Assembly: GCA_964633925.1 (NCBI GenBank)
Contig: CAZWKB010000003.1
Coordinates: 4,598 to 68,597 of the forward strand
From: an uncultured bacterium
GTDB lineage: Bacteria > Margulisbacteria > WOR-1 > JAKLHX01
Direction: 5' to 3'
Length of the DNA stretch: 64,000 bases
This document shows, piece after piece, positions 4,401 through 24,137 of this stretch. The notes beneath the pieces were generated by a model. The model was not told the DNA's origin, made no database searches, and saw nothing but the letters and a program-made list of their open reading frames with translations. The translations under genes and the position numbers were made by a program. The first letter of the stretch is position 1, and each line of letters opens with the position of its first letter.

Positions 4401-4592
4401 AGCACTCCAGTTAACAACGTAATAAATAACAATTATACAACCAACAATAACAACCAGAACCAATCTGGAGCTTCTGGCCAAAACGGTTCAAACCTACCTC
4501 CTGTTCAAATCACCGTACCGGTCAAAATAGATGGTAGGGAAGTTGCAAGGGCTACAGCAGATTATGTAGATTTGCAGAATAGGAGGAAATAA
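1407..4592 (+). CDS. Tail tape measure protein
   Basis: 1,061 aa, alpha-helical and Ala/Gly-rich, with a roughly 220-aa hydrophobic block. Position is canonical. GTG at 1407 or GTG at 1416 (better spaced from GGGG) could be the start. Confidence 0.8.
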   Translation: MRLVGLNTLGLGIILSLRDGASVPANRAAASLGQLDATAQRFSSRFNTAMATAFEGMNMFAAGLMAAAAPIGFVKSTLKTQQALAYVASSGVEDLGRLKAAAEDFTNTWAGSTQESFLNTAYEIKSGLYELSDAMVTKMTTTTGVLAKATKSTMDEIQSLVPIMWGILKPSRGGITDEAFMNELAGALAQSVKIYRATGKNMGDAFSQATAIATQQGISMEEQFAVLGRLQQTMTGSEAGTKLRALAVNAPRAVELAKKHNVPIQLTDDKGMLLPIINILENARDIFSTKLGPEVAKGISASLNNMEISDDNVVSNVAQQYGKLTADSMEGLRKIFGSREATSTIINLLPYIDQLKDDTLQIKDAMSKGLPVALDMAEKAANNMGDAWEVFVQRVNNLKQSIGESLFGMFGPGLKALGLMVVALQKFVKANPWLIRIASAIAMVAGSALMLTGILFILSAAFQIVNASVALMKSRMVLLRAEFLKFLITLWPLLLLAGTLYFAFKTNFMGISDAFMNSIKKIKEFFNMVKLVFQGLGELIHTFSNDKGTISADLHDKLVDAGLWDLVKTLFMVYTRLRYLWEGIKAGFKDTWTFILNQVLKPIGAGIRDYVLKPLGALLAKFGIVFPALQKLINPTQENANAWKEVGYWIGVALAILATVGTIWKIIAPIIKVAKFIGTIVTKLGWLWKAIAWIGKLIFGLGKWLWTAFMWIAGIVAGILGIPVWVAALIVAAVIAIIVLIVIFRKQVWAFLQTIFWGIVGVFATIGIVLFQAIMAVVLIIIAAVGIIIGIIWGIVNVVISIVAAIVGVFLTCWTIIAGIWMMIFEVIKGIVLTIVAVVKAIFTGDFTTLGETLKGIWGGVWQNIQDICAGVVQKIIGIWDGIKGVLAGVWGSLKDTASGFFNWIGEKFAWVGSLVDKIKGVWSSMGGKISEAWNAITVKGHATGGLFNGPSIIGIGEQPNVKEAAIPLSGRHMLPFANAIASAMPEPVLDGPKNGYRSTPVNNVINNNYTTNNNNQNQSGASGQNGSNLPPVQITVPVKIDGREVARATADYVDLQNRRK

Positions 4593-5057: not shown

Positions 5058-5360
5058 TTGTCAATATTTCAAGGTTCTAGATATGAAAATTCGAAAGTGT
5101 ATAAACATAATAACGCTTTCTATATAGGCTCAAGAAAGATTCTTAAAAAGAAAGAATTTGATGACAACATTATCCATGTCGTAAGAGATGGAGAAAGGCT
5201 TGAGTTAATCGCATATAATTATTGGAAAATGCCTGAGTGGTGGTATATCATATGTGATTGGAATGATATATTTAATCCATTTTTAGCTTTAGAGCCTGGC
5301 ACGATTCTAGTATTACCAAGTTTTAGCAGAATTTCTGGAGGTGACATTTATGATTCCTGA
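5058..5360 (+). CDS. LysM-like tail protein (P2 gpX-like)
   Basis: VVRDGERLELIAYNYW...EPGTILVLPS is a LysM-like motif. TTG start lies 9 nt after AGGAGG. Confidence 0.55.
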   Translation: MSIFQGSRYENSKVYKHNNAFYIGSRKILKKKEFDDNIIHVVRDGERLELIAYNYWKMPEWWYIICDWNDIFNPFLALEPGTILVLPSFSRISGGDIYDS

Positions 5361-6843
5361 AGCTTACGATCCGTTTTTTACTATTAAAATAGACGGTAAA
5401 AAAGCACCTTCAGAACTTGCAGATAAAATAAGTAAGTTTGAATTTGAAGAAGTCGATGATAAAGACGACATGATGACAATTTTGATTGACGATACTCTAT
5501 TGCAATTTGTAGATGACCCTATGCTTGATATTGGTGGGGTTATAACATTTCAATATGGATATCTAAATAGAAGAAGTGCTGTTAAGCAGGCAAAAATAAA
5601 GGATGTCGAAGGCTTAAATGAAATAAAAGTTCAAGCCTATCAAATAAATTCTGGAGTTGTACCACCACCTGCTCCCTCAGCATCTCCTGCACCGGCCAAA
5701 GTAGAGTCTACTTCGTCTGCACCAAAGACATATACAGTAGTCAAAGGCGATAATCTTTCTGCAATTTCAAGAAGATTTGGACTTCCAGGGTGGAAAGATT
5801 TATACAATGCAAATAGAGATGTCATAGGTTCTAATCCAAATCTTATTTATCCTGGGCAGGTTTTAAAAATCCCTGGACAAGAAGAAGAGATTCAGACTCC
5901 TGCTGAAGAGCCGGCACCAGAAGTTGTTGAGGAGGATAGCCCAAATCCTTTAGCAACGCATAGCAGAGTATGGGAAAATATGACTTACTCAGAGATTGCA
6001 ACTTCTATTGCTGAGGAAATGGGGTTACAAGCTGATGTTGAAGTAGTGGAAACAAGATATGATTATACTCCGCAAACAAATGAAGACAATTTGGCTTTTC
6101 TTAAAAGACTTGGCGATAGAATAGGATATACAGTTAAAGTCTATGGTGATAAATTATTTTTCAGAAATGTAGATTTTTCATCAAAAACACAAAGGACTTT
6201 ATATTACTATATTGATGGAGCAGGAGAAGTTGAAAAGTTTTATCCTAAGATTAAAACTAAAGATGCAAAGTCTTCAGCATCATCTACTACAACTAACCCT
6301 ACAAACAAAACTGCTTCTACTACTAAGGCAAACAATACAAATTCGACTAAACTTGGCCAGTATTCTTATGTAATAAATGGTATTACAGGTGAAGAAGAAA
6401 AAGTATTTACGCCAGTTCAAGGGGCTTCTAATAATAAAGTTTCAAATACAACTGATAATGTTGCCGCTGGGGCAATGAAAAATAGCGAGTCTAAAAGTGG
6501 CACTACAAAATGGTTTGAAGCAGATATAGATTGTATTGGAATACCAGAGATAAAGGCTGGAGGTTTAGTAACTATATTCGGTGTAGGCAAAAAATGGTCT
6601 GGAAATTGGTATGTAAAGACAGTAAGGCATACAATTGATAGTGGTGGATATAGGACTTCATTGGAATGCACAAGAAATGGTATCGGCCAAGCTGCTAAAG
6701 TTTCAGACGAAAACGAAGGTCCTATCAACAACCCTACTTCGACTGAAAGCTCTGGTTCAAATAAAACTGCAAGTAAAAACCCTGGCAAGGTTTATATAGT
6801 TGATGGTATAACTGGAGAAGAAACAGTAGGCCAAATGCCATAA
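5350..6843 (+). CDS. Baseplate hub / late control gpD-like protein with inserted LysM domain
   Basis: C-terminal GNWYVKTVRHTIDSGGYRTSLECTRN is a gpD signature. Internal YTVVKGDNLSAISRRFGL...YPGQVLKIP is a LysM domain. ATG 5350 follows GGAGGTGA; the ORF-track start 5341 overlaps that RBS. Confidence 0.7.
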   Translation: MIPEAYDPFFTIKIDGKKAPSELADKISKFEFEEVDDKDDMMTILIDDTLLQFVDDPMLDIGGVITFQYGYLNRRSAVKQAKIKDVEGLNEIKVQAYQINSGVVPPPAPSASPAPAKVESTSSAPKTYTVVKGDNLSAISRRFGLPGWKDLYNANRDVIGSNPNLIYPGQVLKIPGQEEEIQTPAEEPAPEVVEEDSPNPLATHSRVWENMTYSEIATSIAEEMGLQADVEVVETRYDYTPQTNEDNLAFLKRLGDRIGYTVKVYGDKLFFRNVDFSSKTQRTLYYYIDGAGEVEKFYPKIKTKDAKSSASSTTTNPTNKTASTTKANNTNSTKLGQYSYVINGITGEEEKVFTPVQGASNNKVSNTTDNVAAGAMKNSESKSGTTKWFEADIDCIGIPEIKAGGLVTIFGVGKKWSGNWYVKTVRHTIDSGGYRTSLECTRNGIGQAAKVSDENEGPINNPTSTESSGSNKTASKNPGKVYIVDGITGEETVGQMP

Positions 6844-8246: not shown

Positions 8247-9629
8247 ATGGCTACTGATTATACTTCTCGCGATTTCGATTCGCTAAAACAGGAAATGATA
8301 AGCAGACTGACAGTCCTGCTACCAGAGCTTAATAACAAAAAAGATTCAGAATTTGCAATCGCAATGATTGAGTTGTTTGCATGGGTTGGTGATTTGTTAT
8401 CATATACGCTAGACAGATATTCTAATGAAGTGTATCTTGAAAGTGCTATACAAAAAGAAAATGTCATTAAGATTTGTAATATGCTTGGGTACAAACTAAG
8501 AAACTGGCAACCAGCTAAAGTTACATTGACATTTTCTATAACAGCCCCTGTAAATAAAATGATTATAATACCCGCAAGAACTGTCTGTTTAACTGAAGGC
8601 TCTAACCCTATAAGATTTGAAACAGATGAAATTGCGATTATAGAAGTAGGCCAAACATCTGTAACAGTCACCGCTACGCAAGGCGAAACCAAAGAAGAAA
8701 CTCTTGGGTATAGCAACGGTTCTTCTAATCAAATCTATAATTTAACTTATCAACAGGTTTTAGACGGTGTTAAAATATATGTTGAGGGTGAAGAATATGA
8801 CGAAATCGATAACTTCATTAACAGCTCTTCAGAAGGTAAAGACTTTGTCGTAGAAAGATATGGAAGTAAATCTTCAAGAGTATTATTTGGCAACGGAGTT
8901 AACGGATATATCCCTGAAAACGATTATAGAATTTTCGCTTCTTATCGTATTGGCGGTGGTGAAATTGGCAACGTTAGTATGAACTCTATTACAGTTATTA
9001 AAGGTCAAATCTACAATGAAGACAACATAATTGCAGATGTTTATGTAACAAATCAAGAAGATGCATACGACGGTGAAGATGAGGAGTCAATTGCATCTGC
9101 AAAAGCTAAAGCACCTTCGCAGATTTATACTCTATGGAGAGCTGTTACAAAGGATGACTTCATTAAATTAGCACTCACATTACCGGATGTTGAGAAAGCA
9201 ACAGCTACTGTAGATTCTGCAGGCGGTGCATTGGTCAACATGTATATAAAACTTAAAAACAGTGAAACAATATCTGCAGAAAGACTTGGCGAGATTTATG
9301 CATTCTTTGTTGAAAGAAAGCTTATTGGGGCTAGAGTATCTATAAATCCTCCGATTTATAGAACGAATACAGTAAACATAACAGCTTATACATTCCCAGG
9401 CCTTTCAAATTCTGAAATACGTCTTAAAATAATAGACTTTGTTCAGAACCAATACAAGGTTGGTACATTAGGCTTTGGTGAAGAGCTTTATAGCGGTGAG
9501 ATAATACAGTCTCTAATGGAATGGGTTGACGTTAAAAACGTTGACGTAGACATTGCCGGAGGAGTACCAGCAGAGAATGAAATGGTTAAGATTGTTGCAA
9601 TTAATGTTACAGTGACGGGAGGTAAATAG
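8247..9629 (+). CDS. Baseplate J-like protein
   Basis: N-terminal ...SEFAIAMIELFAWVGDLLSYTLDRYSNEVYLESA is typical of the Baseplate_J family. Size and position fit. Confidence 0.8.
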   Translation: MATDYTSRDFDSLKQEMISRLTVLLPELNNKKDSEFAIAMIELFAWVGDLLSYTLDRYSNEVYLESAIQKENVIKICNMLGYKLRNWQPAKVTLTFSITAPVNKMIIIPARTVCLTEGSNPIRFETDEIAIIEVGQTSVTVTATQGETKEETLGYSNGSSNQIYNLTYQQVLDGVKIYVEGEEYDEIDNFINSSSEGKDFVVERYGSKSSRVLFGNGVNGYIPENDYRIFASYRIGGGEIGNVSMNSITVIKGQIYNEDNIIADVYVTNQEDAYDGEDEESIASAKAKAPSQIYTLWRAVTKDDFIKLALTLPDVEKATATVDSAGGALVNMYIKLKNSETISAERLGEIYAFFVERKLIGARVSINPPIYRTNTVNITAYTFPGLSNSEIRLKIIDFVQNQYKVGTLGFGEELYSGEIIQSLMEWVDVKNVDVDIAGGVPAENEMVKIVAINVTVTGGK

Positions 9630-9630
9630 G

Positions 9631-12258
9631 ATGGCAAATGAAACAATTTTTGATTCCTTAGGCCAAGACTATTTATATAACAACCTGCCAGCTGTTTATA
9701 GAACGTTAGACAACGAGCAAAAACTTATTCTTAAAAGATTGCTTGAAGCCATTCAGGGTGGTGGTTTAGAACCGATACTACAATCGATTATAGATATGGT
9801 TGATGTAAATTTGGTAGATAATCTTAATCAGGAAGAGCTAAAGTTACTTGGTAAGACATTTGGTTATGAATATAGTTATACTCTTCCTATTGAGCGCCAA
9901 AGAAAAATAATCAAAAATATAGTTGAAATATTTAAAAGAAAAGGTACTAAATCATCTGTTATATTTGTAGCTAAAGAGATAACTGGTTTTGATACAGAAA
10001 TCTCTGACCTTGGTAGTAAAGTTTTTAGAACATGGTCTACAAATCAACATAATGAATTAGAAGGATATACTACACCAAGAACATATAAAGCAGGAAATGC
10101 AGATAACTCAAGGTATTTAGGCAAAAAACATAGAGGTTCTAATGTAGTTATTAAGTTAACACCACTCGCTGGTGGAATTTTGAAGTTCGATATGGTCATG
10201 GCTTTAATAGAGATTTTAAAAATGGTATTACCAGTATATACAAATCCATTTTTATTAGTATCTAGTATTGAGCTTCCAGAAGACTATACACCAATACTAG
10301 ACGAATATGACTTATTTGTTTTGAAAGATTTGGAGTCTTATACGGTAAAACCAGATATTGAATATTTGAATATTGACATAAGTATCTTGGCTTCATTAGA
10401 AGATTCAAACCCGTTCAATTATTCATATCAAGAAAATACAATTATAAGATTAATCACAGAAGATGAAATATTCTCTAATGCTCTATCAGAAGTAACTTAC
10501 TTTAATGATAGGTATGTTTATAGAGAAGAATATATTCCTGTTGCAATTGATGAAGATTCAAGTAAGATTATATTCTTACCAATAGAAGAGGCTAAAAACT
10601 TAATTAAATCTAAAACATCAGAAACAAATCTATTCGATATTGTCTCTGAACAAATGCATGTAGATATTGAAGAAGAGGCTGACAGGCATTGGGGTGAAAG
10701 TACTGACGAACATGAAAATCCTTTCTTAATTAAAATTAAGGAATACGAAACGTTCTCAGCTTCAGGGACTACAGAATCTGACTTGCCTATGATTATAAGA
10801 ATAAAATCTTCAGATGAAGTGTTTAATCCAACAGTTCTTGAAGAAATGTTTACAATCGAAGACACTCTAACATCCGGTTATGGATTAATATTAGATGGCA
10901 TTAGCAGTAGAGCATATACTGAAAGCAATCCTTTAAGTTCTGGAGCTAAAACTATTGCAGTCAAAGTAAAACCTTCAGCATCTAATGATGACTATGCTAG
11001 AATTGTTCAGGCTTCTACTGCATCAAATACTGGCTGGAGCATTAGATTATTAGGAAATAAAATTATTGCTCAAGTAAAAGAATATAGCATTGATTATAAT
11101 GCTGCTTCAAGCGATTTAGTATTTGATGGTGAACATGAATATCAAATACATTTAACATTTGACGGAACTAATACTCCAAAATTATTTATCGATGGAGTAT
11201 TACAATCTGGAACGGCAACAGACGAAGCCGGAGACGATGGAGGAACTGGTATTTATGTTGGTGCTAAAACTGGCGGTACGAGCTACTTCTTTGATGGAAT
11301 AGTTAGAGATTTAGTGCTTTATTCAAGAGCTATGTCTGATATAGAAGTAGAAGATGACCAAGACTATAGGCCAAATGGAAACGAATCCGGATTACAAGCA
11401 TACTGGAAATTCGATGACATGAGTGGTTCAGAAGCACAAGACTATACTTTAAACGAAAACAATATGACAGTAGTTTTAGCATCTTGGTTATATACTTTAA
11501 TGAAGCACGACTCCGGTGACGCTTTAGATGATAAGTATGAACAAGCGATAAGCTTGGCTAAAACAGACTCTGGTACTGGTACTGATACAAAATCTGCACA
11601 GGCAGTCAATATTTCCAAAACAGACTCTGGTACTGGTACTGATACAATGAATTCTAACGTTGAAACAAGAGTTATTAATTCTACAGACTCTGGTACAGCT
11701 GCAGAAACAGTTACAGGTATTTCTCAAACGCTTTATATCAGTGTTTCAGACTCTGGTACTGCTACAGAATCGCATACGTTAGATGAAGGTTCTGCAGAAC
11801 CAACAATTACATTGATAATGAATAATTCTAAACTTGAACTAGGCTTAGGTAGCGGTGGAGGATTTGCATACAACTACGGTGCTACAATCGCAGAAGGGCA
11901 AACACCTCTTGATGGAGGTCAAGTAATAAGATGTCAACAAGTATGCGATATGCTAAGGTATCAAACTGGCGTATCAGTTGCTTCTGGAAAAAAAGTAAGA
12001 TTTAGAATGTCAATTAAAGCAGACCCAAGCTATATAAACAACGCGGATACTCAAGTATTTATGTTACTTAGAGTTGGAAGTACAGATACTAGAGTTAACT
12101 TACCAACAGGTTCTGCATTTGATTGGACAGAATTCGATGCAGAATACACACTATCTAGCGCATTCAACGGAGAGATAGACGTTTGGTTTAAAATTGAAGG
12201 AAGCGCTACTGCAAATACTGCTTATTGGGTTAGACAATTTGAAGTTGGATGGTTATAA
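9631..12258 (+). CDS. Baseplate/tail protein gpI-like N-terminus fused to LamG-like jelly-roll, TDSGT repeats and a C-terminal binding domain
   Basis: N-terminus LPAVYRT...KNIVEIFKRKGTKSSV is P2 gpI-like. The middle GYGLILDG...LFIDGVLQ...FDGIVRDLVLYSRAMS is LamG/ConA-like. Four (T/S)DSGT repeats are present. Confidence 0.65.
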   Translation: MANETIFDSLGQDYLYNNLPAVYRTLDNEQKLILKRLLEAIQGGGLEPILQSIIDMVDVNLVDNLNQEELKLLGKTFGYEYSYTLPIERQRKIIKNIVEIFKRKGTKSSVIFVAKEITGFDTEISDLGSKVFRTWSTNQHNELEGYTTPRTYKAGNADNSRYLGKKHRGSNVVIKLTPLAGGILKFDMVMALIEILKMVLPVYTNPFLLVSSIELPEDYTPILDEYDLFVLKDLESYTVKPDIEYLNIDISILASLEDSNPFNYSYQENTIIRLITEDEIFSNALSEVTYFNDRYVYREEYIPVAIDEDSSKIIFLPIEEAKNLIKSKTSETNLFDIVSEQMHVDIEEEADRHWGESTDEHENPFLIKIKEYETFSASGTTESDLPMIIRIKSSDEVFNPTVLEEMFTIEDTLTSGYGLILDGISSRAYTESNPLSSGAKTIAVKVKPSASNDDYARIVQASTASNTGWSIRLLGNKIIAQVKEYSIDYNAASSDLVFDGEHEYQIHLTFDGTNTPKLFIDGVLQSGTATDEAGDDGGTGIYVGAKTGGTSYFFDGIVRDLVLYSRAMSDIEVEDDQDYRPNGNESGLQAYWKFDDMSGSEAQDYTLNENNMTVVLASWLYTLMKHDSGDALDDKYEQAISLAKTDSGTGTDTKSAQAVNISKTDSGTGTDTMNSNVETRVINSTDSGTAAETVTGISQTLYISVSDSGTATESHTLDEGSAEPTITLIMNNSKLELGLGSGGGFAYNYGATIAEGQTPLDGGQVIRCQQVCDMLRYQTGVSVASGKKVRFRMSIKADPSYINNADTQVFMLLRVGSTDTRVNLPTGSAFDWTEFDAEYTLSSAFNGEIDVWFKIEGSATANTAYWVRQFEVGWL
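11560..11647 (+). repeat. In-frame direct repeat (31 bp perfect, 57-bp period) plus two degenerate copies downstream
   Basis: AAAACAGACTCTGGTACTGGTACTGATACAA occurs at 11560-11590 and 11617-11647. CAGACTCTGGTAC recurs near 11684 and 11748. Confidence 0.9.
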
Positions 12259-12270
12259 GGAGGATAAATC

Positions 12271-12396
12271 ATGGACAAAGAAAAAGGAACTGTATCTACG
12301 AATGTGTCTATTGATAAGTATGATGAAAAAATGGTACTAATCGATAGATATAATTCTGAGGATGAAAATCAAATAAACAAAAAGGAGGTTAATTAA
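12271..12396 (+). CDS. Small hypothetical protein (41 aa)
   Basis: ATG lies 7 nt after AGGAGG (12258-12263). Encodes MDKEKGTVSTNVSIDKYDEKMVLIDRYNSEDENQINKKEVN*. It fills the gap between two genes and is below the ORF-track length cutoff. Confidence 0.5.
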   Translation: MDKEKGTVSTNVSIDKYDEKMVLIDRYNSEDENQINKKEVN

Positions 12397-12397
12397 A

Positions 12398-12901
12398 ATG
12401 ACTCTTGATAGTGTAAAGAAGTGGACAGTCAAATCAAAACTTGAAAAATTTCATAACGACAAGGACTTTATTGAAAATAAGCCTTTTGAGGTTATGGAAA
12501 TGGACGGCAATAGCCTTCTTGATGAAGGTATTAATTTGCTGTGGAATCTTGTTTGTGGAGCAGCTGGAACAGCATTCTCAAATGCCAATGCCTTTATTGG
12601 CGTAGGTGATAGCTCAACTGCAGCTGTAAGAACGCAAACTGGATTACAAGGTTCAAACAAGTTCTATAAAGCTATGGACGCAACATATCCGCAGTCAGGT
12701 GCCAGTGCAAAGGCAGTGTTCAAATCTACATTTGCTTCATCTGAAGCCAATTTTGCTTGGAACGAGTGGTCAGTGGCAAACGGCAATGGTACTGCTGGAG
12801 ATACTTCTACGGTTATCAATCTTAATCGTAAAGTAGAATCAATGGGAACAAAAGCTTCAGGTTCAACTTGGGTATTAACTGTAGAAATCAGTCTAACCTA
12901 A
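12398..12901 (+). CDS. Hypothetical virion protein, paralogue of 13032..13559
   Basis: Shares the layout ...G-rich loop...IGVGDS/AIGSGL...NWxEF/AWNEW...K(V/T)xS with the next gene. Sits in the fibre region. Confidence 0.5.
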   Translation: MTLDSVKKWTVKSKLEKFHNDKDFIENKPFEVMEMDGNSLLDEGINLLWNLVCGAAGTAFSNANAFIGVGDSSTAAVRTQTGLQGSNKFYKAMDATYPQSGASAKAVFKSTFASSEANFAWNEWSVANGNGTAGDTSTVINLNRKVESMGTKASGSTWVLTVEISLT

Positions 12902-12904
12902 GGC

Positions 12905-12944
12905 AAATACCTATACATGTGTTTATATTGGTATATGGTATTTC
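12905..12944 (+). terminator. Possible terminator hairpin
   Basis: AAATACC(T)ATAC...GTAT(AT)GGTATTT stem of about 12 bp with one bulge, followed by a weak T-run. Confidence 0.3.
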
Positions 12945-12946
12945 GT

Positions 12947-12964
12947 AATTCTAGCAGGGTCTAG
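12947..12964 (+). repeat. Partial third copy of the 43-bp intergenic element
   Basis: AATTCTAGCAGGGTCTAG compared with AATCTAGCAGGGTTCTAG at 37573-37590. Upstream TGTGTTT is also shared. Confidence 0.5.
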
Positions 12965-13031
12965 TAAAGGCTAAGAAACGTAATAAGCATGGTTTAATAT
13001 TAAAACAAATTAAATAAGGAGGTATTTTATA

Positions 13032-13559
13032 ATGAATGACAAAATGAGTAATGTAAGAAATTTAATGGTCGGCGAATTCAGAGATATTATTCGTCATAAA
13101 GACGGAAAAGTCGAAACTACTGATTGGAATAAAAACCTTATCGTAGATGATATCATTAGAGCAATCGCATGCGCTTTGAAAGGCGATGCCGGTATCAAAT
13201 ACTGGGCAATTGGTAGCGGTTTAAGCGATTGGGATGATGTAAATCCTCCAGCTGCTACTGCTTCTGATGTTGAACTCGTAACAGAGATTGGCAGAAAAGC
13301 ATTAACTTCTGGTGCATTCCAATATGTTGATGGAAGCGGTAACCCTACTGCCTCAATCACAAACAGAATCTTGATTACATTAACATTCACATATGACGAA
13401 TGTAACGGTAACTGGAGAGAATTTTCTATCATTGGTGGTAGTAATGCTACTGCTTCGGCAGATACTGGCATTTGCTTAAACCATAAGACACACGGTTTGA
13501 TTGTTAAAACAAGCAGCATGGAGATTGAAAGACAAATCAGATTTACTTTCAATAATTAA
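13032..13559 (+). CDS. Hypothetical virion protein, paralogue of 12398..12901
   Basis: See 12398..12901. Has a strong AGGAGG RBS. Confidence 0.5.
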   Translation: MNDKMSNVRNLMVGEFRDIIRHKDGKVETTDWNKNLIVDDIIRAIACALKGDAGIKYWAIGSGLSDWDDVNPPAATASDVELVTEIGRKALTSGAFQYVDGSGNPTASITNRILITLTFTYDECNGNWREFSIIGGSNATASADTGICLNHKTHGLIVKTSSMEIERQIRFTFNN

Positions 13560-13577
13560 TGAAAGGAGAGGAATAAC

Positions 13578-14273
13578 ATGGCAGATTTTAGCCAAAACGA
13601 CAAATTCAACCCTGAAGCCGGTTTTTCCTCTATTCGTTTTAGTGGAGATGGTTTTGTTCTTGAAACTGAATTAAATGAAATGCAAAAAATATTTCAGAAT
13701 AAAGTCAAAACCATCTTTAAAAACTATTTGACTGATGGTATTTTCAATCTTGGTACTACTGAATATAATGCAGGAGTGTTTACTATTCGAGATGAAGTAG
13801 CCGTTATTGATGGTGAAATTCTTCAAATTACAACATTGACTATAGAAGCCGATGAGGGCGAAGATATTTATCTTGATATGTGGACAAAGGAAGTTACTTT
13901 CGAAGATGCTTTAAAGAGATTTGGTAATGAGCAGACAGAAGACACTGTTCCAAACGAAATTCTCGACCAAAGAGCTTTGGAAGAAACTACAAGAAGGTTT
14001 GTAACTGCATTCAATATCACAAAAACTACCGGTGAGGAAGACCATCAATATCTATTGCTTGGAACTATAACGGATGGAGAGTTCGAACAGAAAGTTTCTG
14101 GAATAGGCGGCAAACTTGATAAGAGCGGTGGTACTATGGAAGGACCTTTAACTGCCAATTCTAATAATCAATATGCGACACGCCAAGTAAGAAACATTAT
14201 AGTATCTACGGCTGACCCTACTGAAGAAGATGGGCAGAATGGAGATATTTGGTTTAAATATGCAGCAGAATAG
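13578..14273 (+). CDS. Tail fibre / baseplate-attached fibre protein
   Basis: N-terminal FVLETELNEMQ and C-terminal GGKLDKSGGTMEGPL...GDIWFKY are motifs common in phage fibre proteins. Confidence 0.4.
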   Translation: MADFSQNDKFNPEAGFSSIRFSGDGFVLETELNEMQKIFQNKVKTIFKNYLTDGIFNLGTTEYNAGVFTIRDEVAVIDGEILQITTLTIEADEGEDIYLDMWTKEVTFEDALKRFGNEQTEDTVPNEILDQRALEETTRRFVTAFNITKTTGEEDHQYLLLGTITDGEFEQKVSGIGGKLDKSGGTMEGPLTANSNNQYATRQVRNIIVSTADPTEEDGQNGDIWFKYAAE

Positions 14274-14284
14274 GAGGTGCAAGA

Positions 14285-17200
14285 ATGCTTAAAAGAGTTT
14301 TAGTCTATTACGGCTGGCTTAGTGCAATCAATGGTTTGTTTGATGTAGAAGCCGCTGCAGAAAAATTTTCAAATTATGATATAGTCATTATAGGCGATGG
14401 ATTAGAGCATCCTGCACATCCTGACTATGCTAATACAACAGCTATTATAGCTGCTACTAAAACAATTAATGTAGTCACAAAGTTTTTCGGATACATTCCA
14501 GTTGGACAATTAAGTCCATCAAAATTAGACATTTCCACGATGCAAGATTATGCAGATGAGTGGGTTGTTACTGGTGCTGACGGTATATTTCTTGATGAAT
14601 TTGGATATGATTATCATGTATCAAGAAGTTTACAGAATCAAATAGTATCATACTGTAAGAACCTCAATTTACCGGTAATTGTAAATGCTTGGAGCCAAGA
14701 ACACGTATTCGGAAAAGAAGCCTATGTTGATGGAGACTTCCATGCAAATGATTCTGGAGAAATTCCAGTTTTAAATCAAGACGATTTTATCTTATTCGAA
14801 AGTCTATTTACCTATAATGAAGAAGGCACTCAAAAATTCGCAACAGGTAATAGAATTTTTGAAGCAGTAAAATATCTTCAATTTAATAGAGAAGAATATT
14901 CAAATAAGACTTATTATGACCAATACAAAGTTAGGCCTTTGGCAGTTGATACTATTGATAAAAGCCTTGAAGACAAAAACAGGTTATTTGCAATAGGGTA
15001 TTATAGCAGTTATATGCTTAATTTTGTTGGTTATGGCGCATCTTCTCCAAATTATGGTGCTAGTGACCCAGACATAAATCACTACTTACCTTCGCCAAAT
15101 CCTAAATTAGAACCGCCTTCTTGGCATATAGTCGATGTTACTCCATATCAAAGTAGTGGTAGACAGTTTAGAACTGCTTATACAAATGACTTTGGAGACG
15201 TTATAATTAAGCTTATATGGTTAGAAGGAAATCCTGTTTGGGACATAACAAAAGGGGAGCACGTTGTATTTCTGAACGATATTGAAAAAAATACTTTTTC
15301 AGATGATGCGACAGACTTATATCCTCAATTCATAGATGACCCATTGTTTATGAAAAGCACAGAAGGGAATATATCAGTTGTTGGTAGTGAATTTCAAACA
15401 GGATATGGAGCACCAACTGATTCTCATAGATTTATCAGGCCCGGAGGTGGAGGCCTTGCCCCTGATGATTGGTGGTATTGCGGAGGACCAGAATGGCCAG
15501 GTTATGCAATTGCAATTGTTAATGTAAATACAATTGCAGAAAGAAATGCCTTAGCAGCTTCAATCGGAGTCAAACAGGTAAAAGTCCAAGAAAATGATAC
15601 ATTATATAAGTATGATGGTAGTAATTGGGTTTCGATAGTTGGCAACGACCCTAAAGAAAATTATCAAGGATTTTTGGATGCCGGAGGTCAATGGATTGAC
15701 CCTACTGACCAAGACAAAGCTCAATTAGCTTCATTGACAGACAATCCAATATACTATAATATAACCCCATACAAATTGGTTAAACTCGATGCTACAGACC
15801 CCAAAGTAAGGCAAGGGACACCGCCTTCTGATATGCCTCAGAACTATGGTTTAACTCAATGTTTTGAGCTTAATCAAACGAATAAACATTATATGAAGAT
15901 ATCTTTCTTCTATAAAACAGTTGGTTTTTCTGTTACTCCGCAGGTTAATTTCCAGGGATATAGTGCTGCTATTTTAGACAATAACTGGTCTGAAACAAAC
16001 TCTGGTGGTACTTATCTATTTATGGACACAGCATCAACATCATCACCCTGGAGAGAGGCTTCTCAGATTATAACTGCAGAATATCCTTTCTTATATGGAT
16101 TTGTCCATATGCTAGTAAGAGGCGCATCTACTGGACAGTTATTTATTACTGGATTAAAACTAGAACAATTGCAGATTGTAAAAGATGATTCAGTCGTATC
16201 TGACAATTTACTTATAAACGGAGATTTTGCCGTTGCAATTTCAGATATTAATGTTAAAGGAAACGTTCTTGGATTTGAAATGGAAAATGCAACTAAGGCA
16301 ACATACTCAACGCCTCTACCAGTAGTAAATTTCTTGGCCACTGTCGATGTTAAGCCAGAAGGCTATTTTGAACAAAGAGGTATAGTAACAAATTCAAGTT
16401 TGAATATGTATACGCTTAAAGTACCTTATCGCTCGCTTTTAGGATGTCAAGGAAAGATTATTGTTGAACTTAGAGATAGGTTTAAAAATATACTATCTTT
16501 AAAAGAAATTCAATTGGATGTAATAGAGTCTACAGTATGGAAAGAACAGCTAGTAGAATTTATTGCAGGCTATCCAGTTGAATCAGTAGACATTCGTATT
16601 GAAAATACCGGTACTACTGGAAACCTTACAATAGGTAAATTGGCTCTTACTGCTGCTGACTTAGGGATAACAGATGGCGACATAAATGCAGTTAATGGTA
16701 CTGAAGAAGAAATAACTATTAGTCAGATGGCTAGAGCAGACCATACAAGAGTTGTTGGCTTACCAGAACCAATGGGAATAAGCAAAGTTAAAGCTGACTT
16801 TTTCAAAAAATTTACAGAAGAACAGCTAATGCATGAAGATGACCCATACGAGGGAATTGTTTATATCACTGATGGTAATATAAAAGATATTTCTCCAAAA
16901 CTTTGCAGAAGATTATCTACTGTAAAAGTGTATGAAACAGTACCTTTTACACAAGGAGATTTTGAAAGCAATGCATATGATGTAGGTTCTGATACTGATT
17001 CTGTAATGGTCAAATACAATGGAATTATGATGCTGCCATACTTAAAACCACCACATCTTTCGCATATCCATACTTGGAAAGAAACTGGTGCAAATTTTTC
17101 TGCTCAGCATATGGGTAGGAGATATTATTGTGTAACAGCCTATAATGCTCAAGGTGAAACTACTAAATCAAATATTATTGTAGGTAAAGCTGAAGGCGTA

Positions 17201-20200
17201 AACGGTGTGAAAGTATCAGGTGTCATTAAACCACCTCAGTGCAAAGTACCAATAGAAATTACACCAAGTGAAGGTGCTGTTGGTTATAGAATTTATGTAA
17301 CAGAAGAGGCTACGCCTTGGAGTCAGTTACAAAACACAGTTGGTAGAGATTGGTTCTTCTTAGAATCTTCATTCTATTATGTAATGAAAATGAATTATCC
17401 TATTTGGGGAGATAATTGCTTATTAGACGAAATCACTACAGAAGAGCTTAGAGAAATGGGATATGTTTATTATGATGATGGGCATATTGCAAACACTCAG
17501 CAGGGAAAACCACCAACTTCAAATACTGCTTTAGTATATATGCTGAACGATGGGGTTTTATATTTTGATGACTTATTTAAAGACTGGGTATCAAGATATG
17601 ATTATACAAAGCTAAGCATTTTCAAAAGCGTTGATACTACGAAGAAAGAAATGAATGGCGGTATTTATCTGCCAAACAAAAAAATGTTTTATATGTCGGC
17701 AGGAACAAAACTGTTTTATCATGATGAATATCAATTAGCTGAAGTATATCAAATTGGTAATTCAGAACTTGGTGATGTAAAAGGCTGGTGTAATGATAGT
17801 GATGAAGCCTATTATGTAACAGACCAGGGTAAAATAGTTAAGCTGTCTGATGGTTCTGTAATAAGTATTGCAGGTACAGTCTTTACAAATATCTTAGGAA
17901 TTGTAAAAGAAGATAATGGATTTGCAATATTAAGAGGTAATTCTATAACAAAAATAAATATGACTGGAGCTGTGACTAGCCAGTTTAATATTCCTTCTGG
18001 AATTGCTGGTTCTTTAATAGGTTTTTCTAAGGTATTTGATAAATATGTAGTATTTAATGATACTACTAAAAAACTAATATTCTTTGATAACCTTGCAATA
18101 CGTAGTCAAATAACTCCTACTGCCGTACCAAAGTTTTTCAACGTTGTAGGTACTACACTATTTATTTATATAGCACATGAAGAAGACGAACTACCTCACT
18201 CAATGCTGCTATATGATTTGATATGCGAAAAGTACTATGGAGAGATGAATCCAGTAAAGATATTCGACTCAGAACCACAATTTCCAGATGCTGACAGACA
18301 ATTAATTTTATGGGAAAGCGACCCTAACCTATATCCGAATATAGTCCCAAATGGAGACTTCAGATGTAGTTTATTAGGAGACCAAGTATATCCAGCTTAC
18401 ACTGAAATATTCCCTTCACCACCGGCTAACGTACCTTGGTCTGTCGAAAGAGATACTGTTTTAGATGTTGAAAAAAATATAATACATTTTAAGAATGGTG
18501 GAAACACACAGGCAAGACTTTATTATTCTCGCATAGGTATAAAAGGTGGTATGCAATACCAAGTTAATCTCACCGCTAAAGCTCTCGCTTCTGGTGGTTA
18601 TGTAAATATTACATTTGGTGTAAGAAACAAGCATGATAAAGAGCGTTGGGGAATAAATAATCATGGAATTTCAATAGGCACTGAATATAAAACAATAAGC
18701 TTTAAAATCCAAATACAGGAAGAAGCCCTGTCAGTCAACGTAGATTTGAGTTTTGGTGCAGGCATTGAATATAAGGTATCGGCATTCGAAATTATACCGC
18801 TAGACCCAGTTCTAGAGATTCCAGAGTTTCTTGAAAATGGGGATATGAGTATAATAGACCAGGGTGCGAATTATCCTTCGGGCTTCAAAATGTCAAACAT
18901 GCCAAACGAAACAGGATTGGCAAATGTGACTTCATCAATGGTTTTAGATTCTACCAATGGCAATGCATGGAGAATAGTTGATACAAATACAGCTAAAGAA
19001 AAATGGTATATTGACCTACCTATTATGAAAATCACTGCAGGCGACCAATTGAGATTGAAATTTAAGTATAAATGCAGTAGTACAACAGCAGACATGCTTG
19101 TAAGAGTAATAATGTGTTTTGAAGATGGAGCTCCAATACAGAGTCTTAATGATTTTACTGTAAAAGCTTCAGATACAAACGAGCATGAATATGTATTACC
19201 TACGTCTCCATTCATGGAATACTGTACTTATGACCCAGTTCAATATCCAGCCTTTGCAGGAAAACCTTATCCTAAACTGATGGTTCGTATTCATCCGGCT
19301 GCTGGTGCTACAAGCGAATTTAGAATGTTTGCTCCAGAATTATTCGTTTCAGGTAATTCGTTACAGAGAGCAACAAATCCTGAATTTGCAGATGGAATTT
19401 CAGCATGGTATACTACGATGCCAACTCCTGTTGGAAATACGGCAATAACTGCAGAAACAAAAGATGGTGTAAAATGCGCCCACTTTGTACATGCGGGCAA
19501 TGGCACTGCACAGCTTTGCCAAGAATTTGAAATACCAAAAACTAAAAACCCAATTGAAGTTGCAATAACGCTCAAAGGTACATTAACGAGTACGCTTGCA
19601 GATGCTGCCGCTTTAAGATTTAACGATGTATTCTTCTCTAGTCCGAATGGTCAATTCAAAGATAATAGCAATGCAGATTGGCCGTTTGAAAGGATTGCAA
19701 TATATCTAGAAGCGCTTAGCGAAGCAGCTTTCCCAAAAGGTAGTTTAAACTACACTGATTGGACTACATTAAAATTTACTGTTAATCCAAAAGTTGTTGA
19801 TAATGTTACAGACTATATATTCAAATGCTCGTTGAAATGTACTATATCTTCAAACTGGGGATGCACGGCAGCAGACCTTTATATAAGAAGTATCACTTGT
19901 ACTGAAATTTCAAGTGAAGTAGTTGAGGACCCTGATGATATTGAAATAGTTTGTCAAGATACTTTTACGGTTAGTCAGGGATATATACCAATTACGCTTA
20001 AACTTAAAAAAGGTGACGAAAATGTAGCAATAGGAGCACAAACAATTCAATTGACTTCCAATGACCCAGCAGGAGAGATCGAAATTAGCAGCACTAATGT
20101 TTTAGGATATGCAAGGGCTTTGTTTATTCCTAAGGTGTTTGCTGGTATAGTAAAACTAACTGCGACATATGGAAGCGTAACTGCTACAAAAGAAATAGAA

Positions 20201-21571
20201 GTAATGCCTCTGATAACACAGTTTAAGTCATTCAGAGAGATTGTTGGTTTTGATGATTTATTTTCTGATAAACTATATCTTGAAGTTATTTATAAGAAAA
20301 GATTCAAGGACTTCAGGCATGAAGGTGACCAAGTACAAGGATGGACAGTATTTAGGTCTCCTGAGTTTAACAAAGAACAGACAATGGACACTCCAATGAG
20401 TATTTCAACTTTAGATTCTGGATATTTAAGTAGAATGCAAGAACTATTTGATACGTTCCCATATTACTATTGCAATTTTTCTGAATATTTCGACTATGTT
20501 GCAGATAAGAACGAAATGTATGCATCACCGGTAGAGCGTGCACAAGCTTATATTTTCAGAAACAGAAAATGGTGGTATTCTTTAAGCCTTGAGGGTTATA
20601 AATCTCCATTCGGAGCTCCTGACTATAGAAGGTTGTACAATTGGAGGGAAAAGGAAATGTTCCAATGGTATATGGACAGAATAATGTTCATAATGAAACC
20701 GTATGTAGATGGGATTTATTTGGATGACTTTTGGGGAGAAGAATATAAGACATCTGCAGGATTTGACTTCAGCTTTAAGAAAACACCATTGCTCAACTAT
20801 TTAAGCTTTATGGATAGACAATATGCACAGGCAAGGACGCTTAAATATCTTGGGTTTAAATGTAGACTAAAAGGTAAATATCTATGTTGTAACTATGGTG
20901 CTTCAGTTGATGCAAACTATAGTTCAGATGGTTCTCCCAAAAGGCTTACAAACGGAGATATCGACCCTAATTCAGGCAAATACTCACCGGCAGATATGGC
21001 ATTGATTTATCCGTTTGATGGATTCTTAATTGAAAACTTTACAGGTTGGGATGACCAAGTTGGAATGACAGCAGAAAGTTCAATCAACCAGCTTACAAAC
21101 AACATGTGGATGGTTCGTGGTATTATAGAATTGATGAGATATTGTAGGGACCACGGCAAGTTTATTGTTTGTTTGGCAAGAGGAACCCCACAAAACTGGG
21201 ATATAAGGATGATGAACTTCGCATTGTTCTTAATGGGATGGTTCCCAAATGCTTATATGACAATGCATCAGTTAACAGAGTACGGAGAAGATGAAGACGA
21301 AGCAGTAAGGTATGGAGAAGTATTCCATATTCAGATGCTTCCTGAAATGAGGATTCGCTTAGGCGAACCGAAATCAGACTATGTATGGAATAACTACCTA
21401 TTCAGCAGAGAATTTGATAACTGCATCGCACTGGCAAACGCTTCTACATCTTCTGGTAGAAGCTATACATTGCCAGAAGGAATATGGTATGACCTTAAAG
21501 GGAATGCTTACACTGGGACAGTAACAGTTCCAAAAGCATCTGCATTAGTAGTTATGAAAGTAAGACCATAA
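14285..21571 (+). CDS. Giant (2,428 aa) tail fibre / putative polysaccharide depolymerase
   Basis: Single uninterrupted ORF. The N-terminal (VLVYYGW...GIFLDEFGYDY) and C-terminal (YVDGIYLDDFWGEEY) regions resemble GH114/GHL-type TIM-barrel hydrolases. At least four N(G/P)(D/E)F-initiated CBM4/9-like modules and one Ig-like module lie between them. Confidence 0.6.
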   Translation: MLKRVLVYYGWLSAINGLFDVEAAAEKFSNYDIVIIGDGLEHPAHPDYANTTAIIAATKTINVVTKFFGYIPVGQLSPSKLDISTMQDYADEWVVTGADGIFLDEFGYDYHVSRSLQNQIVSYCKNLNLPVIVNAWSQEHVFGKEAYVDGDFHANDSGEIPVLNQDDFILFESLFTYNEEGTQKFATGNRIFEAVKYLQFNREEYSNKTYYDQYKVRPLAVDTIDKSLEDKNRLFAIGYYSSYMLNFVGYGASSPNYGASDPDINHYLPSPNPKLEPPSWHIVDVTPYQSSGRQFRTAYTNDFGDVIIKLIWLEGNPVWDITKGEHVVFLNDIEKNTFSDDATDLYPQFIDDPLFMKSTEGNISVVGSEFQTGYGAPTDSHRFIRPGGGGLAPDDWWYCGGPEWPGYAIAIVNVNTIAERNALAASIGVKQVKVQENDTLYKYDGSNWVSIVGNDPKENYQGFLDAGGQWIDPTDQDKAQLASLTDNPIYYNITPYKLVKLDATDPKVRQGTPPSDMPQNYGLTQCFELNQTNKHYMKISFFYKTVGFSVTPQVNFQGYSAAILDNNWSETNSGGTYLFMDTASTSSPWREASQIITAEYPFLYGFVHMLVRGASTGQLFITGLKLEQLQIVKDDSVVSDNLLINGDFAVAISDINVKGNVLGFEMENATKATYSTPLPVVNFLATVDVKPEGYFEQRGIVTNSSLNMYTLKVPYRSLLGCQGKIIVELRDRFKNILSLKEIQLDVIESTVWKEQLVEFIAGYPVESVDIRIENTGTTGNLTIGKLALTAADLGITDGDINAVNGTEEEITISQMARADHTRVVGLPEPMGISKVKADFFKKFTEEQLMHEDDPYEGIVYITDGNIKDISPKLCRRLSTVKVYETVPFTQGDFESNAYDVGSDTDSVMVKYNGIMMLPYLKPPHLSHIHTWKETGANFSAQHMGRRYYCVTAYNAQGETTKSNIIVGKAEGVNGVKVSGVIKPPQCKVPIEITPSEGAVGYRIYVTEEATPWSQLQNTVGRDWFFLESSFYYVMKMNYPIWGDNCLLDEITTEELREMGYVYYDDGHIANTQQGKPPTSNTALVYMLNDGVLYFDDLFKDWVSRYDYTKLSIFKSVDTTKKEMNGGIYLPNKKMFYMSAGTKLFYHDEYQLAEVYQIGNSELGDVKGWCNDSDEAYYVTDQGKIVKLSDGSVISIAGTVFTNILGIVKEDNGFAILRGNSITKINMTGAVTSQFNIPSGIAGSLIGFSKVFDKYVVFNDTTKKLIFFDNLAIRSQITPTAVPKFFNVVGTTLFIYIAHEEDELPHSMLLYDLICEKYYGEMNPVKIFDSEPQFPDADRQLILWESDPNLYPNIVPNGDFRCSLLGDQVYPAYTEIFPSPPANVPWSVERDTVLDVEKNIIHFKNGGNTQARLYYSRIGIKGGMQYQVNLTAKALASGGYVNITFGVRNKHDKERWGINNHGISIGTEYKTISFKIQIQEEALSVNVDLSFGAGIEYKVSAFEIIPLDPVLEIPEFLENGDMSIIDQGANYPSGFKMSNMPNETGLANVTSSMVLDSTNGNAWRIVDTNTAKEKWYIDLPIMKITAGDQLRLKFKYKCSSTTADMLVRVIMCFEDGAPIQSLNDFTVKASDTNEHEYVLPTSPFMEYCTYDPVQYPAFAGKPYPKLMVRIHPAAGATSEFRMFAPELFVSGNSLQRATNPEFADGISAWYTTMPTPVGNTAITAETKDGVKCAHFVHAGNGTAQLCQEFEIPKTKNPIEVAITLKGTLTSTLADAAALRFNDVFFSSPNGQFKDNSNADWPFERIAIYLEALSEAAFPKGSLNYTDWTTLKFTVNPKVVDNVTDYIFKCSLKCTISSNWGCTAADLYIRSITCTEISSEVVEDPDDIEIVCQDTFTVSQGYIPITLKLKKGDENVAIGAQTIQLTSNDPAGEIEISSTNVLGYARALFIPKVFAGIVKLTATYGSVTATKEIEVMPLITQFKSFREIVGFDDLFSDKLYLEVIYKKRFKDFRHEGDQVQGWTVFRSPEFNKEQTMDTPMSISTLDSGYLSRMQELFDTFPYYYCNFSEYFDYVADKNEMYASPVERAQAYIFRNRKWWYSLSLEGYKSPFGAPDYRRLYNWREKEMFQWYMDRIMFIMKPYVDGIYLDDFWGEEYKTSAGFDFSFKKTPLLNYLSFMDRQYAQARTLKYLGFKCRLKGKYLCCNYGASVDANYSSDGSPKRLTNGDIDPNSGKYSPADMALIYPFDGFLIENFTGWDDQVGMTAESSINQLTNNMWMVRGIIELMRYCRDHGKFIVCLARGTPQNWDIRMMNFALFLMGWFPNAYMTMHQLTEYGEDEDEAVRYGEVFHIQMLPEMRIRLGEPKSDYVWNNYLFSREFDNCIALANASTSSGRSYTLPEGIWYDLKGNAYTGTVTVPKASALVVMKVRP

Positions 21572-22718: not shown

Positions 22719-24137
22719 ATGGCAAAATGGTTTATTGACCCAGGACATGGTGGAAGCGACCCGGGCGCCATAAATAGTAAAGTTACAGAAAAAGCAATAA
22801 ATCTTATAGTAGCTTTGCAGCTTGAAAAGAAATTATTGGCTGCAGGACAGCAAGTAATGATGTCTAGAAGGACAGATATTACAGTTAGTCTAGATGGAAG
22901 ATGTAAAATGGCTAATGACTGGGGTGCAGATTATTTTGTTTCTGTACATCATAATGCTGGAGGTGGCGATGGTTATGAGGTTATCCATTCTATCTATTAC
23001 GGCGTCGGAACTAAAATGGCTGAATCTGTTGCAGCTGGCTTTGCCTCCCTAGGACAAAACGGACATGGTTCTAGAGCAACATATTCAAGAGAAGGCAGCA
23101 ACGGTGACTATTATGCAGTAATAAGAAGCACTAAAATGCCTGCAATTATTACTGAATACGGATTCATGGACAGTAATGACTATTTGGCATTTGATACTGA
23201 AGATGAGCTTATTGCTGAAGGAAATAGTTTGGCAAGCTCTTTGTTAAAATTCATTGGAGCAAATCAAAATACTGCAGAACCTGCAAAAATTATGTACAGA
23301 GTTATTATAGACGATGTGCAAATAATGGCACTTTCTAACTTTGATAATGCTGTTGCTACTATTCATCAAAAAATAAATAATGGCGAAGGGAAAACTGGAA
23401 GAATCCAAAGAAATACAGATTCGCTAGACGTTTATTTCTATGAAAAACCAGAACAAGCACAGCCAGAACCAGTTAAGCATATGATTTGTGGTGGTTCTGA
23501 AGTTTCTGCAGAACATATGGCAGGATATCTGTTAGGTATTAATTCAAACCCAAAAATCAATATTGGCTTAATAACTCCAGAAAATGTAGTTAAGTTCTGT
23601 CAGACATTCATAGATGAAGGCAAAAAAGAAGGTATATCTGGAGATAAAGCATTTTGCCAAAGTCTACACGAAACTGGTAATTTTTCTTTTAGTGGCGATG
23701 TTAAGCCAGAACAAAACAACTTTGCAGGCATTGGAGCAACTGGAGGAGGAGCCGGAGGTGCAAGTTTCGAGAATTATGTCAAAGGCATCATTGCTCAGAT
23801 TCAGCATCTGAAAGCTTATGCAAATACACAACCTCTTGTTGGTGAAAAGATTGACCCAAGATTTGACCTCGTTACAAGAGGCGTCGCACCAAACTGGGAA
23901 GACCTGAATGGTAGATGGGCCGTGCCAGGTACTACGTATGGACAAAGTATTATAGCAATTTTTGAAAAAGTAAAACTCGCACAACCGGTAGTTCTTAAAG
24001 ACTGGAAACAGAAAGGCGTAGATTACTTATTAGAAAAAGGCTATATAACTGAAGTCCATGATAAACTAGAAATATTAGATATGGGGACGTTTGGAACAAT
24101 ATTAAAAAACATTGAAGAAAAGAATGGAGGAAAATGA
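22719..24137 (+). CDS. Bifunctional endolysin: N-acetylmuramoyl-L-alanine amidase (Amidase_3) + glucosaminidase-like domain
   Basis: N-terminal FIDPGHGGSDPGA...VSVHHNAGGG is Amidase_3. C-terminal FCQSLHETGNFSF...NNFAGIGATGGG is LytD-type glucosaminidase. Confidence 0.85.
   Translation: MAKWFIDPGHGGSDPGAINSKVTEKAINLIVALQLEKKLLAAGQQVMMSRRTDITVSLDGRCKMANDWGADYFVSVHHNAGGGDGYEVIHSIYYGVGTKMAESVAAGFASLGQNGHGSRATYSREGSNGDYYAVIRSTKMPAIITEYGFMDSNDYLAFDTEDELIAEGNSLASSLLKFIGANQNTAEPAKIMYRVIIDDVQIMALSNFDNAVATIHQKINNGEGKTGRIQRNTDSLDVYFYEKPEQAQPEPVKHMICGGSEVSAEHMAGYLLGINSNPKINIGLITPENVVKFCQTFIDEGKKEGISGDKAFCQSLHETGNFSFSGDVKPEQNNFAGIGATGGGAGGASFENYVKGIIAQIQHLKAYANTQPLVGEKIDPRFDLVTRGVAPNWEDLNGRWAVPGTTYGQSIIAIFEKVKLAQPVVLKDWKQKGVDYLLEKGYITEVHDKLEILDMGTFGTILKNIEEKNGGK

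Follow-up and report, generated by a model that had tools for sequence, protein, structure and literature searches.

What kind of protein is encoded by a 7.3-kb phage gene whose two ends both resemble glycosidase barrels, and how did it come to have two of them? The question is raised by P0001, the 2,428-residue product of one open reading frame (ORF) in a 64-kb window of DNA. The window is the whole stretch that was analyzed, 64,000 nucleotides corresponding to positions 4598-68597 of contig C3 (111,192 bp), within a 2.1-Mb metagenome bin. P0001 is probably a giant baseplate-attached fibre or receptor-binding protein with two retaining-type glycoside hydrolase (GH) triosephosphate isomerase (TIM) barrels, a reading built on profile matches and predicted structures. 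The coordinates of the gene, its domains, and its neighbors are collected in Table 1. The first-pass annotation of this DNA described a single uninterrupted ORF, and its boundaries were exact. The reading frame has 2,428 codons and zero internal stops, and a frame of this length in ~36% G+C DNA is not a chance product. Three minus-strand ORFs lie within it, but they are short (92-114 aa) and without support, and the credible genes of the window are all on the plus strand.

The position of the gene bears on its function. P0001 is encoded after the hub, wedge, and P2-gpI-like genes. The intergenic gaps that flank it are 11 nt upstream and 8 nt downstream, which places the gene and its neighbors in one operon. 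A strong ribosome-binding site (AGGAGGTG) precedes the start codon. It shares nucleotides with the stop codon of the tail gene upstream, and this overlap suggests coupled translation in that operon. The same slot is kept in L009, a complete phage of 107.6 kb whose record carries direct terminal repeats and is syntenic with the window. The two genomes share 63% identity in the wedge, 48% in the tail protein, and 80% in the helicase, and L009 encodes a 1,878-aa P0001 homologue after the counterpart of the 231-aa tail protein. The place after the baseplate-periphery genes, the size of the protein, and its string of carbohydrate-binding module (CBM)-like and immunoglobulin (Ig)-like modules together point to a fibre or receptor-binding protein. 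A different role was considered, in which P0001 is a soluble enzyme that degrades matrix or wall polysaccharide at the time of lysis for progeny escape or biofilm dispersal. An endolysin with Amidase_3 and glucosaminidase domains is encoded only ~1.1 kb downstream, as this role would have it, but P0001 continues the run of baseplate-periphery genes without a break, and L009 keeps the slot after the tail protein while no endolysin homologue was detected in its 21-kb locus, though genes on both sides match. The DepoScope survey also lends the soluble role something, since TIM barrels made up 10 of 984 fold hits (about 1%; PMC11326577). Against this, the size and the CBM/Ig string of P0001 are typical of fibres, and we regard the soluble enzyme as clearly unlikely.

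Membership of the C-terminal domain in a glycosidase family was established with Pfam. GHL15 (PF14885) matches residues 2060-2378 with 28.3 bits when the whole protein is scanned and 30.9 bits when the piece is scanned, and the gathering score is 27 bits. A word-indexed homologue search with the C-terminal piece returned no homologues. When 1.84 billion representatives were searched exhaustively by HMMER with the C-terminal domain, only 11 other proteins were found; six of them carry the full domain, and five of these six are 1,822-1,878 aa long. Nine loci in IMG/VR encode relatives with such a domain. The family is therefore small, with roughly a dozen members in the 1.8 billion representatives. 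GHL15 was matched in all seven family members examined (best E 2.7e-10), with scores above the gathering score in P0001, L003, L007, and L008 and below it in L009 and L010. A profile of the seven C-terminal domains matches PDB entry 9nhf_A at E 1.6e-6 and 9f9v_A, the GH168 enzyme Rho5174, at E 1.5e-4. The 9nhf entry bears the name 'GHL15 protein', and its description assigns it to glycoside hydrolase family 168.

The profile alignment also locates the predicted active site. Residues D2147, N2203, and E2250 align with residues 155, 202, and 231 of the 9f9v chain. The chain numbering minus a constant offset of 3 gives the published numbering, so that 155 and 231 correspond to D152 and E228, the nucleophile and the acid/base of Rho5174 (PMC11685898). 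The equivalent pair in WfGH168_II is D172/E243, on beta4 and beta6 (PMC12534559). D2147, N2203 (on beta5), and E2250 are invariant across the seven-member family. A low-confidence AlphaFold2 model (predicted local distance difference test score, pLDDT, 56.7) has alternating strands and helices followed by a beta sheet at the C terminus that resembles the subdomain of GH168, and it places D2147, N2203, and E2250 at strand ends. The 12 best Foldseek matches of this model in the PDB are all GH168 structures (E 4e-9 to 2e-7), with template-modelling (TM) scores of 0.34-0.49. These comparisons identify the C-terminal domain as a divergent member of GH168/GHL15 with its predicted catalytic pair intact.

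The N-terminal domain was approached through its homologues and a structural model. AlphaFold2 modeled residues 1-290, with the homologue alignment, at a pLDDT of 91.7 and a predicted TM score of 0.89, and the model consists of eight alternating beta/alpha units. The first-pass annotation had placed TIM barrels at both ends of the protein and was to fall if neither end proved to be a barrel or to match a family; the check returned this confident N-terminal barrel and, at the C terminus, the GHL15 match above the cut-off. Its family label, GH114/GHL-type, stands in part. The C-terminal end is GHL15, now GH168, and neither end is GH114, a membership rejected for both because no GH114 Pfam match appeared at any threshold.

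There are 39 homologues of the N-terminal domain, with identities of 28-50% in the best local alignment. When the 40 aligned sequences (the query and the 39 homologues) were scanned singly, 21 matched Spherulin4 (PF12138, the GH135 Sph3 family), with a best E of 3.8e-8. The N-terminal domain itself had no Spherulin4 match at E up to 10. Its link to Spherulin4 is thus transitive only, because the homologues match and the domain does not. The invariant residues of the family are Y9, Y70, W93, D104, G107, and N134; conservation is at least 90% at D38, H45, W136, D167, and E172. In the model D104, N134, and E172 terminate strands beta4, beta5, and beta6, respectively, and we propose D104 as the candidate nucleophile and E172 as the candidate acid/base. 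The two residues are 68 positions apart, within an Asp-Glu spacing range shared with the GH114/GH166/GH191 galactosaminidases (Asp156/Glu225 in TmGH191 and Asp160/Glu223 in PelA; PMC12054363). The two barrels are distantly related. Comparison of the N-terminal and C-terminal family profiles is weak (E 8e-4, probability 25%, 228 columns), and this weak alignment places D104, N134, and E172 on D2147, N2203, and E2250.

Structure searches with the N-terminal model gave 176 PDB matches at E ≤ 0.001, and the best 50 of them are almost all TIM barrels. The best matches are GH168 fucanases, PbFucA, GH84 O-GlcNAcases, and Cwp19 (GHL10). A search of BFVD matched the model to a 'Myoviridae sp. ctSGr1' protein that is uncharacterised (TM 0.84, 31% identity) and, more weakly, to several phage proteins annotated as Spherulation-specific family 4. 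The bacterial homologues are of a secreted or surface type, with a type IX secretion system (T9SS) sorting domain or a giant RTX/PKD architecture. On the model and the family alignment, the N-terminal domain is a predicted glycosidase-type (beta/alpha)8 barrel of a family that we treat as a separate sister beside GH135.

Several results weigh against these assignments. Residues 1-290 have no Pfam match even at E up to 10. Neither the N-terminal domain nor its family profile matched a PDB sequence, the profile even at E = 10. Against solved structures the N-terminal model finds generic TIM barrels with TM scores of only 0.46-0.50, and Sph3 is not within the best 50 of the 176 PDB matches. At the other end, the model comes from a shallow alignment of seven sequences and its pLDDT is low, and identity to the GH168 structures is 12-17%, so the substrate specificity of GH168 is not transferable to the domain. 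The arrangement of the chain counts in the same direction. The N-terminal head probably lies near the baseplate because it is ahead of the ancestral attachment region, and an enzyme N-terminal to the presumed attachment region is unusual in fibres.

The sequence divergence raises the prospect that one or both barrels are catalytically dead and are carbohydrate-binding receptor heads only. The distance from characterised enzymes, which at the C-terminal end is that to the GH168 structures, and the lack of a direct family match for the N-terminal domain are what such heads might look like. The residue conservation argues otherwise. The Asp, Asn, and Glu on beta4, beta5, and beta6 are invariant in the C-terminal family and align with experimentally supported GH168 catalytic residues, while the N-terminal family keeps D104 and N134 without exception and E172 in at least 90% of its sequences. 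We therefore think it quite improbable that either barrel is a binding head alone, and favor two retaining-type glycoside hydrolase barrels.

The region between the barrels was divided into modules. N(G/P)(D/E)(F/M) motifs are located at residues 645, 1356, 1518, and 1698, and each opens a module of ~160-200 aa, which bears out the four motif-opened modules of the first-pass annotation. The modules were cut from a full-length alignment with six relatives and compared pairwise by hhalign (Table 1). Module M2 is the sole P0001 module to score against CBM_4_9 (PF02018), and its 19 bits are below the gathering score of 25.9. The orthologous position scores 32.9 bits in L003 and 31.9 bits in L010, and the position of M4 scores 45.2 bits (E 1.6e-11) in L008. 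The proposed CBM4/9 identity is supported for the M2 and M4 positions by way of orthologues and extended to the other modules by profile comparison, weakly so for M1, with M2 of P0001 itself sub-threshold. These data predict five jelly-roll modules (A and M1-M4) between the barrels, with at least two positions identified as CBM_4_9 through orthologues. The Ig-like module is weakly indicated. Invasin_D3 matches were found in three relatives at up to 21 bits, all below the gathering score of 33, so this part of the annotation has matches in relatives to show for it and none above threshold.

The central region has a different character. Residues 800-1100 have the highest identity to the relatives outside the C-terminal domain and contain the motifs RYYCVTAYN..GET..SN and EITP.EGA.GYRIY. 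No family match was found for residues 800-1345. Beta-propeller-like repeats had been proposed for residues ~1100-1345 and were not confirmed. When profile windows of residues 1100-1345 were compared mutually there were no internal repeats (best probability 1.8%), and the sole hint of a propeller in this region is a match to an NHL-propeller PDB profile at E = 0.2. A fibronectin type III (FN3)-like duplication in residues 905-1040 was not detected by profile-profile comparison.

How the two barrels came to be in one chain was addressed with the relatives of P0001, which are the IMG/VR contigs L002-L010 (e.g. IMGVR_UViG_3300042923_001092) and the proteins P0042-P0047. The nine viral-contig loci yield six distinct proteins, and these six were used for alignment. 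They are 1,822-1,901 aa long. The part of P0001 with which they align at 23-27% identity begins near residue 447 and extends to the C terminus, and their first ~80 residues match P0001 residues 349-439. They share the module order and gene position of P0001 and are true orthologues. However, none of the six relatives examined has the N-terminal barrel, and residues 1-341 had no match when searched against the whole L009 record. Residues 1-341 are instead collinear with nearly all of P0003, a stand-alone protein of 392 aa with 38% identity. P0003 is the closest stand-alone homologue and is encoded at 8001-9179 of L107 (ENA contig k141_35336, 210,835 bp). The absence of the barrel from the relatives and the stand-alone counterpart elsewhere indicate that P0001 arose by in-frame gene fusion. 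The sequence comparisons lead us to conclude that an ancestral fibre gene received a stand-alone hydrolase gene at its 5' end by in-frame fusion and that the event is lineage-specific. The junction is at residues ~342-349. The composition of the N-terminal module and its G+C content at third codon positions (GC3) match the remainder of the gene, so the module was not acquired very recently.

It is very unlikely that the fusion is unreal and that a hydrolase gene (residues 1-341) and an adjacent fibre gene (from residue ~349) were joined when a stop was lost to sequencing or assembly error: the junction does fall precisely where P0003 ends and where all relatives begin, and the contig does come from a metagenome bin with 7% contamination, but the frame is continuous, no ribosome-binding site like that of the true start was found in front of the internal Met356, the N-terminal module matches the remainder of the gene in composition and GC3, as just noted, and synteny with L009 on either flank shows that the contig is no chimera at this place.

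A true fusion leaves P0001 as the only protein of its kind in the collections searched. Searches of 5.8 billion clusters and of 1.84 billion representatives yielded no second protein in which the two barrels are combined. The whole protein matched no PHROGs family and no PDB sequence. Neither the whole protein nor the N-terminal domain had a match by megablast and tblastn in 50,697 GenBank phage records, and no GH168/GHL15-type or Spherulin4-like domain was found in these deposited phage genomes at BLAST sensitivity. The N-terminal domain does occur in fifteen further IMG/VR loci, in ORFs of 223-1,205 aa measured from stop to stop. On L107, which is phage-like, P0003 adjoins a VanY-type peptidase and a 932-aa unannotated protein. 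The genes of L107 are mostly unannotated, and the neighbors include a radical-SAM protein and a polyphosphate kinase. L107 is possibly a jumbo phage.

Comparison with known systems shows what is shared and what is new. The GH168 enzymes (Fun168A, 8YA6/8YA7; Rho5174, 9F9V; PbFucA, 8RG3; Muricauda eckloniae, 9NHF) are endo-alpha-1,3-L-fucanases that were formerly classified as GHL15. Like them, the C-terminal domain of P0001 is predicted to be a (beta/alpha)8 barrel with a small beta subdomain, an Asp on beta4, and a Glu on beta6, and as in Rho5174 its beta5 Asn aligns with an Asn. Unlike them, soluble enzymes from marine polysaccharide-utilisation loci, it appears to be the C-terminal head of a phage tail protein. 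It also differs from its own phage relatives by an insertion of ~17 residues between beta5 and beta6. GH114, GH135, GH166, and GH191 form a group of retaining endo-alpha-1,4-galactosaminidases that act on galactosaminogalactan and Pel. The N-terminal domain resembles this group in its predicted (beta/alpha)8 barrel and in the spacing of its candidate Asp and Glu, which terminate beta4 and beta6. From GH135 Sph3/Spherulin4 it differs in having neither a Spherulin4 match of its own nor a sequence match to a solved structure. P0001 as a whole is like the phage tail-fibre and tailspike depolymerases, mostly right-handed beta-helices or beta-propellers, in its post-baseplate position, modular build, carbohydrate-active domains, and presumed role in glycan clearing. 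In contrast to the usual depolymerases, its predicted catalytic folds are two TIM barrels, one at each chain end, with ~1,700 residues of CBM-like modules between them.

These features suggest a scheme for how P0001 might work. The CBM_4_9-type modules would bind the surface polysaccharide of the host and hold the virion there. The distal GH168-like head could then cleave the bound polysaccharide by a retaining mechanism with D2147 and E2250. By analogy with GH168, its target might be an alpha-linked glycan that is possibly fucose-rich or sulfated. The fused N-terminal head would cut a second polymer or linkage with D104 and E172, and the analogy here, with GH135, suggests an alpha-linked exopolysaccharide of the hexosamine type. 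Both activities together may let the tail reach the cell surface. The thick or dual exopolysaccharide layer that the first-pass annotation suggested for the host is speculative. In its most ambitious form the proposal is that P0001 is the first phage-borne GH168-type enzyme, placed on a 'two-headed' fibre that digests two polymers in succession, and that the host is the co-binned Margulisiibacteriota (WOR-1). We consider this combination rather unlikely.

In nature, enzymes that strip bacterial capsules and biofilm matrix come mainly from phage tails, as depolymerases. To our knowledge, the known tail depolymerases are almost all beta-helices or propellers, and GH168/GHL15 is a recently defined family that we know so far from marine fucoidan degraders. 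P0001 would put the GH168/GHL15 family on a phage tail, together with an uncharacterised family that is sister to the GH135 galactosaminogalactan hydrolases. It would also be a clean, datable case of host-range machinery evolving by the fusion of a whole enzyme gene in front of a fibre gene. The clear predicted catalytic residues in both domains make direct expression and testing possible. If the two-headed fibre and its WOR-1 host are as proposed, P0001 could serve to probe the cell-surface glycans of a candidate phylum, and it would supply two new activities that degrade exopolysaccharides.

Table 1. P0001, its domains and candidate catalytic residues, and the surrounding genes, in window coordinates.
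Feature	Position	Strand	Details
P0001, whole ORF	14285..21571	+	2,428 aa + stop codon
Ribosome-binding site AGGAGGTG	14272..14279	+	5 nt before ATG of P0001
N-terminal module	14285..15307	+	Residues 1-341; predicted barrel at 1-258, then small C-terminal extension
D104 codon	14594..14596	+	Motif GIFLDEFGYD, end of beta4, invariant in 40 sequences
E172 codon	14798..14800	+	Motif DFILFES, end of beta6, at least 90% conserved
Presumed ancestral start/attachment region	15329..15694	+	Residues ~349-470; aligns with N-termini of relatives; motif GGxGxAPDxWW..GGP
Module A	15692..16180	+	Residues 470-632; related to M4, hhalign probability 87%, E 4.7e-7
Module M1	16190..16684	+	Residues 636-800; NGDF at 645; weakly like M2, E 0.006, full length
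Central region	16682..18319	+	Residues 800-1345
Module M2	18320..18799	+	Residues 1346-1505; CBM_4_9-like
Module M3	18806..19354	+	Residues 1508-1690; homologous to M2, hhalign probability 96.7%, E 5e-10
Module M4	19352..19954	+	Residues 1690-1890; CBM_4_9 by orthologous position
Ig-like module (weak)	19952..20212	+	Residues 1890-1976
Predicted GHL15/GH168-type (beta/alpha)8 barrel and small C-terminal beta subdomain	20432..21568	+	Residues ~2050-2428
D2147 codon	20723..20725	+	Motif DGIYLDDFWGE, end of strand beta4
E2250 codon	21032..21034	+	Motif FDGFLIEN, strand beta6
Tape measure	1407-4592	+	Upstream of P0001
Hub with lysozyme domain	5341-6843	+	Upstream of P0001
Baseplate wedge	8247-9629	+	Upstream of P0001
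Baseplate-periphery genes	9631..14273	+	4 proteins; same operon run as P0001
P2 gpI-like (Tail_P2_I) baseplate protein	9631-12258	+	875 aa; Laminin_G_3 domain at residues 425-573
Tail protein	13578-14273	+	231 aa; directly upstream of P0001; phrog_10588 N-terminus
Endolysin	22719-24137	+	Amidase_3 + glucosaminidase; ~1.1 kb downstream of P0001

The contig that carries the gene was compared with the rest of its bin. The ends of C3 (2-118 and 111076-111192) overlap by 117 bp with 96.6% identity. Its tetranucleotide correlation with the bin is 0.84, the lowest of the bin contigs, and the sequence it shares with the other bin contigs is limited to one metK-like gene. The terminal overlap, the composition, and the absence of shared sequence beyond metK indicate a complete or near-complete phage genome. 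A prophage was rejected on the same three observations and on the location of the genes on one strand. C3 is probably a complete phage of ~111 kb, circularly permuted or with terminal repeats, and its genes point to a contractile-tail (myovirus-like) type. Its DNA polymerase has ~30% identity to the nearest GenBank phage proteins, so the phage lineage itself is new. The metK-like gene is outside the window, at C3:82364-83578, and encodes a full-length MetK-like protein (S-adenosylmethionine synthetase). It has 70.8% nucleotide identity over 582 bp to the bin's own metK on C1.

The RpoB of the bin is closest (71% and 69%) to WOR-1/Margulisiibacteriota genomes. The link between the phage and this group is one of co-binning only, and spacer-like matches between the bin and C3, which were looked for as a host link, were not found. 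The bin rpoB, at C2:103027-107229 (L026), is split into two overlapping ORFs of 360 and 693 aa, so that a frameshift or assembly error is suspected.

Other genes around P0001 complete the picture of the tail. Downstream are two small unannotated genes, the endolysin, and then replication genes. Upstream, the Laminin_G_3 domain of the 875-aa P2 gpI-like protein is a concanavalin-like lectin domain, and the protein is, from its domain content, a second candidate receptor-binding protein. Its L009 homologue aligns over the first 348 residues only. Two small proteins are encoded between the 875-aa and 231-aa genes, and one of them belongs to the BW3TFN tail-fibre-network family. The 231-aa protein covers only the first ~155 of the 1,459 positions of the phrog_10588 tail-protein profile, and it is possibly an adaptor that has split off and serves to attach P0001.

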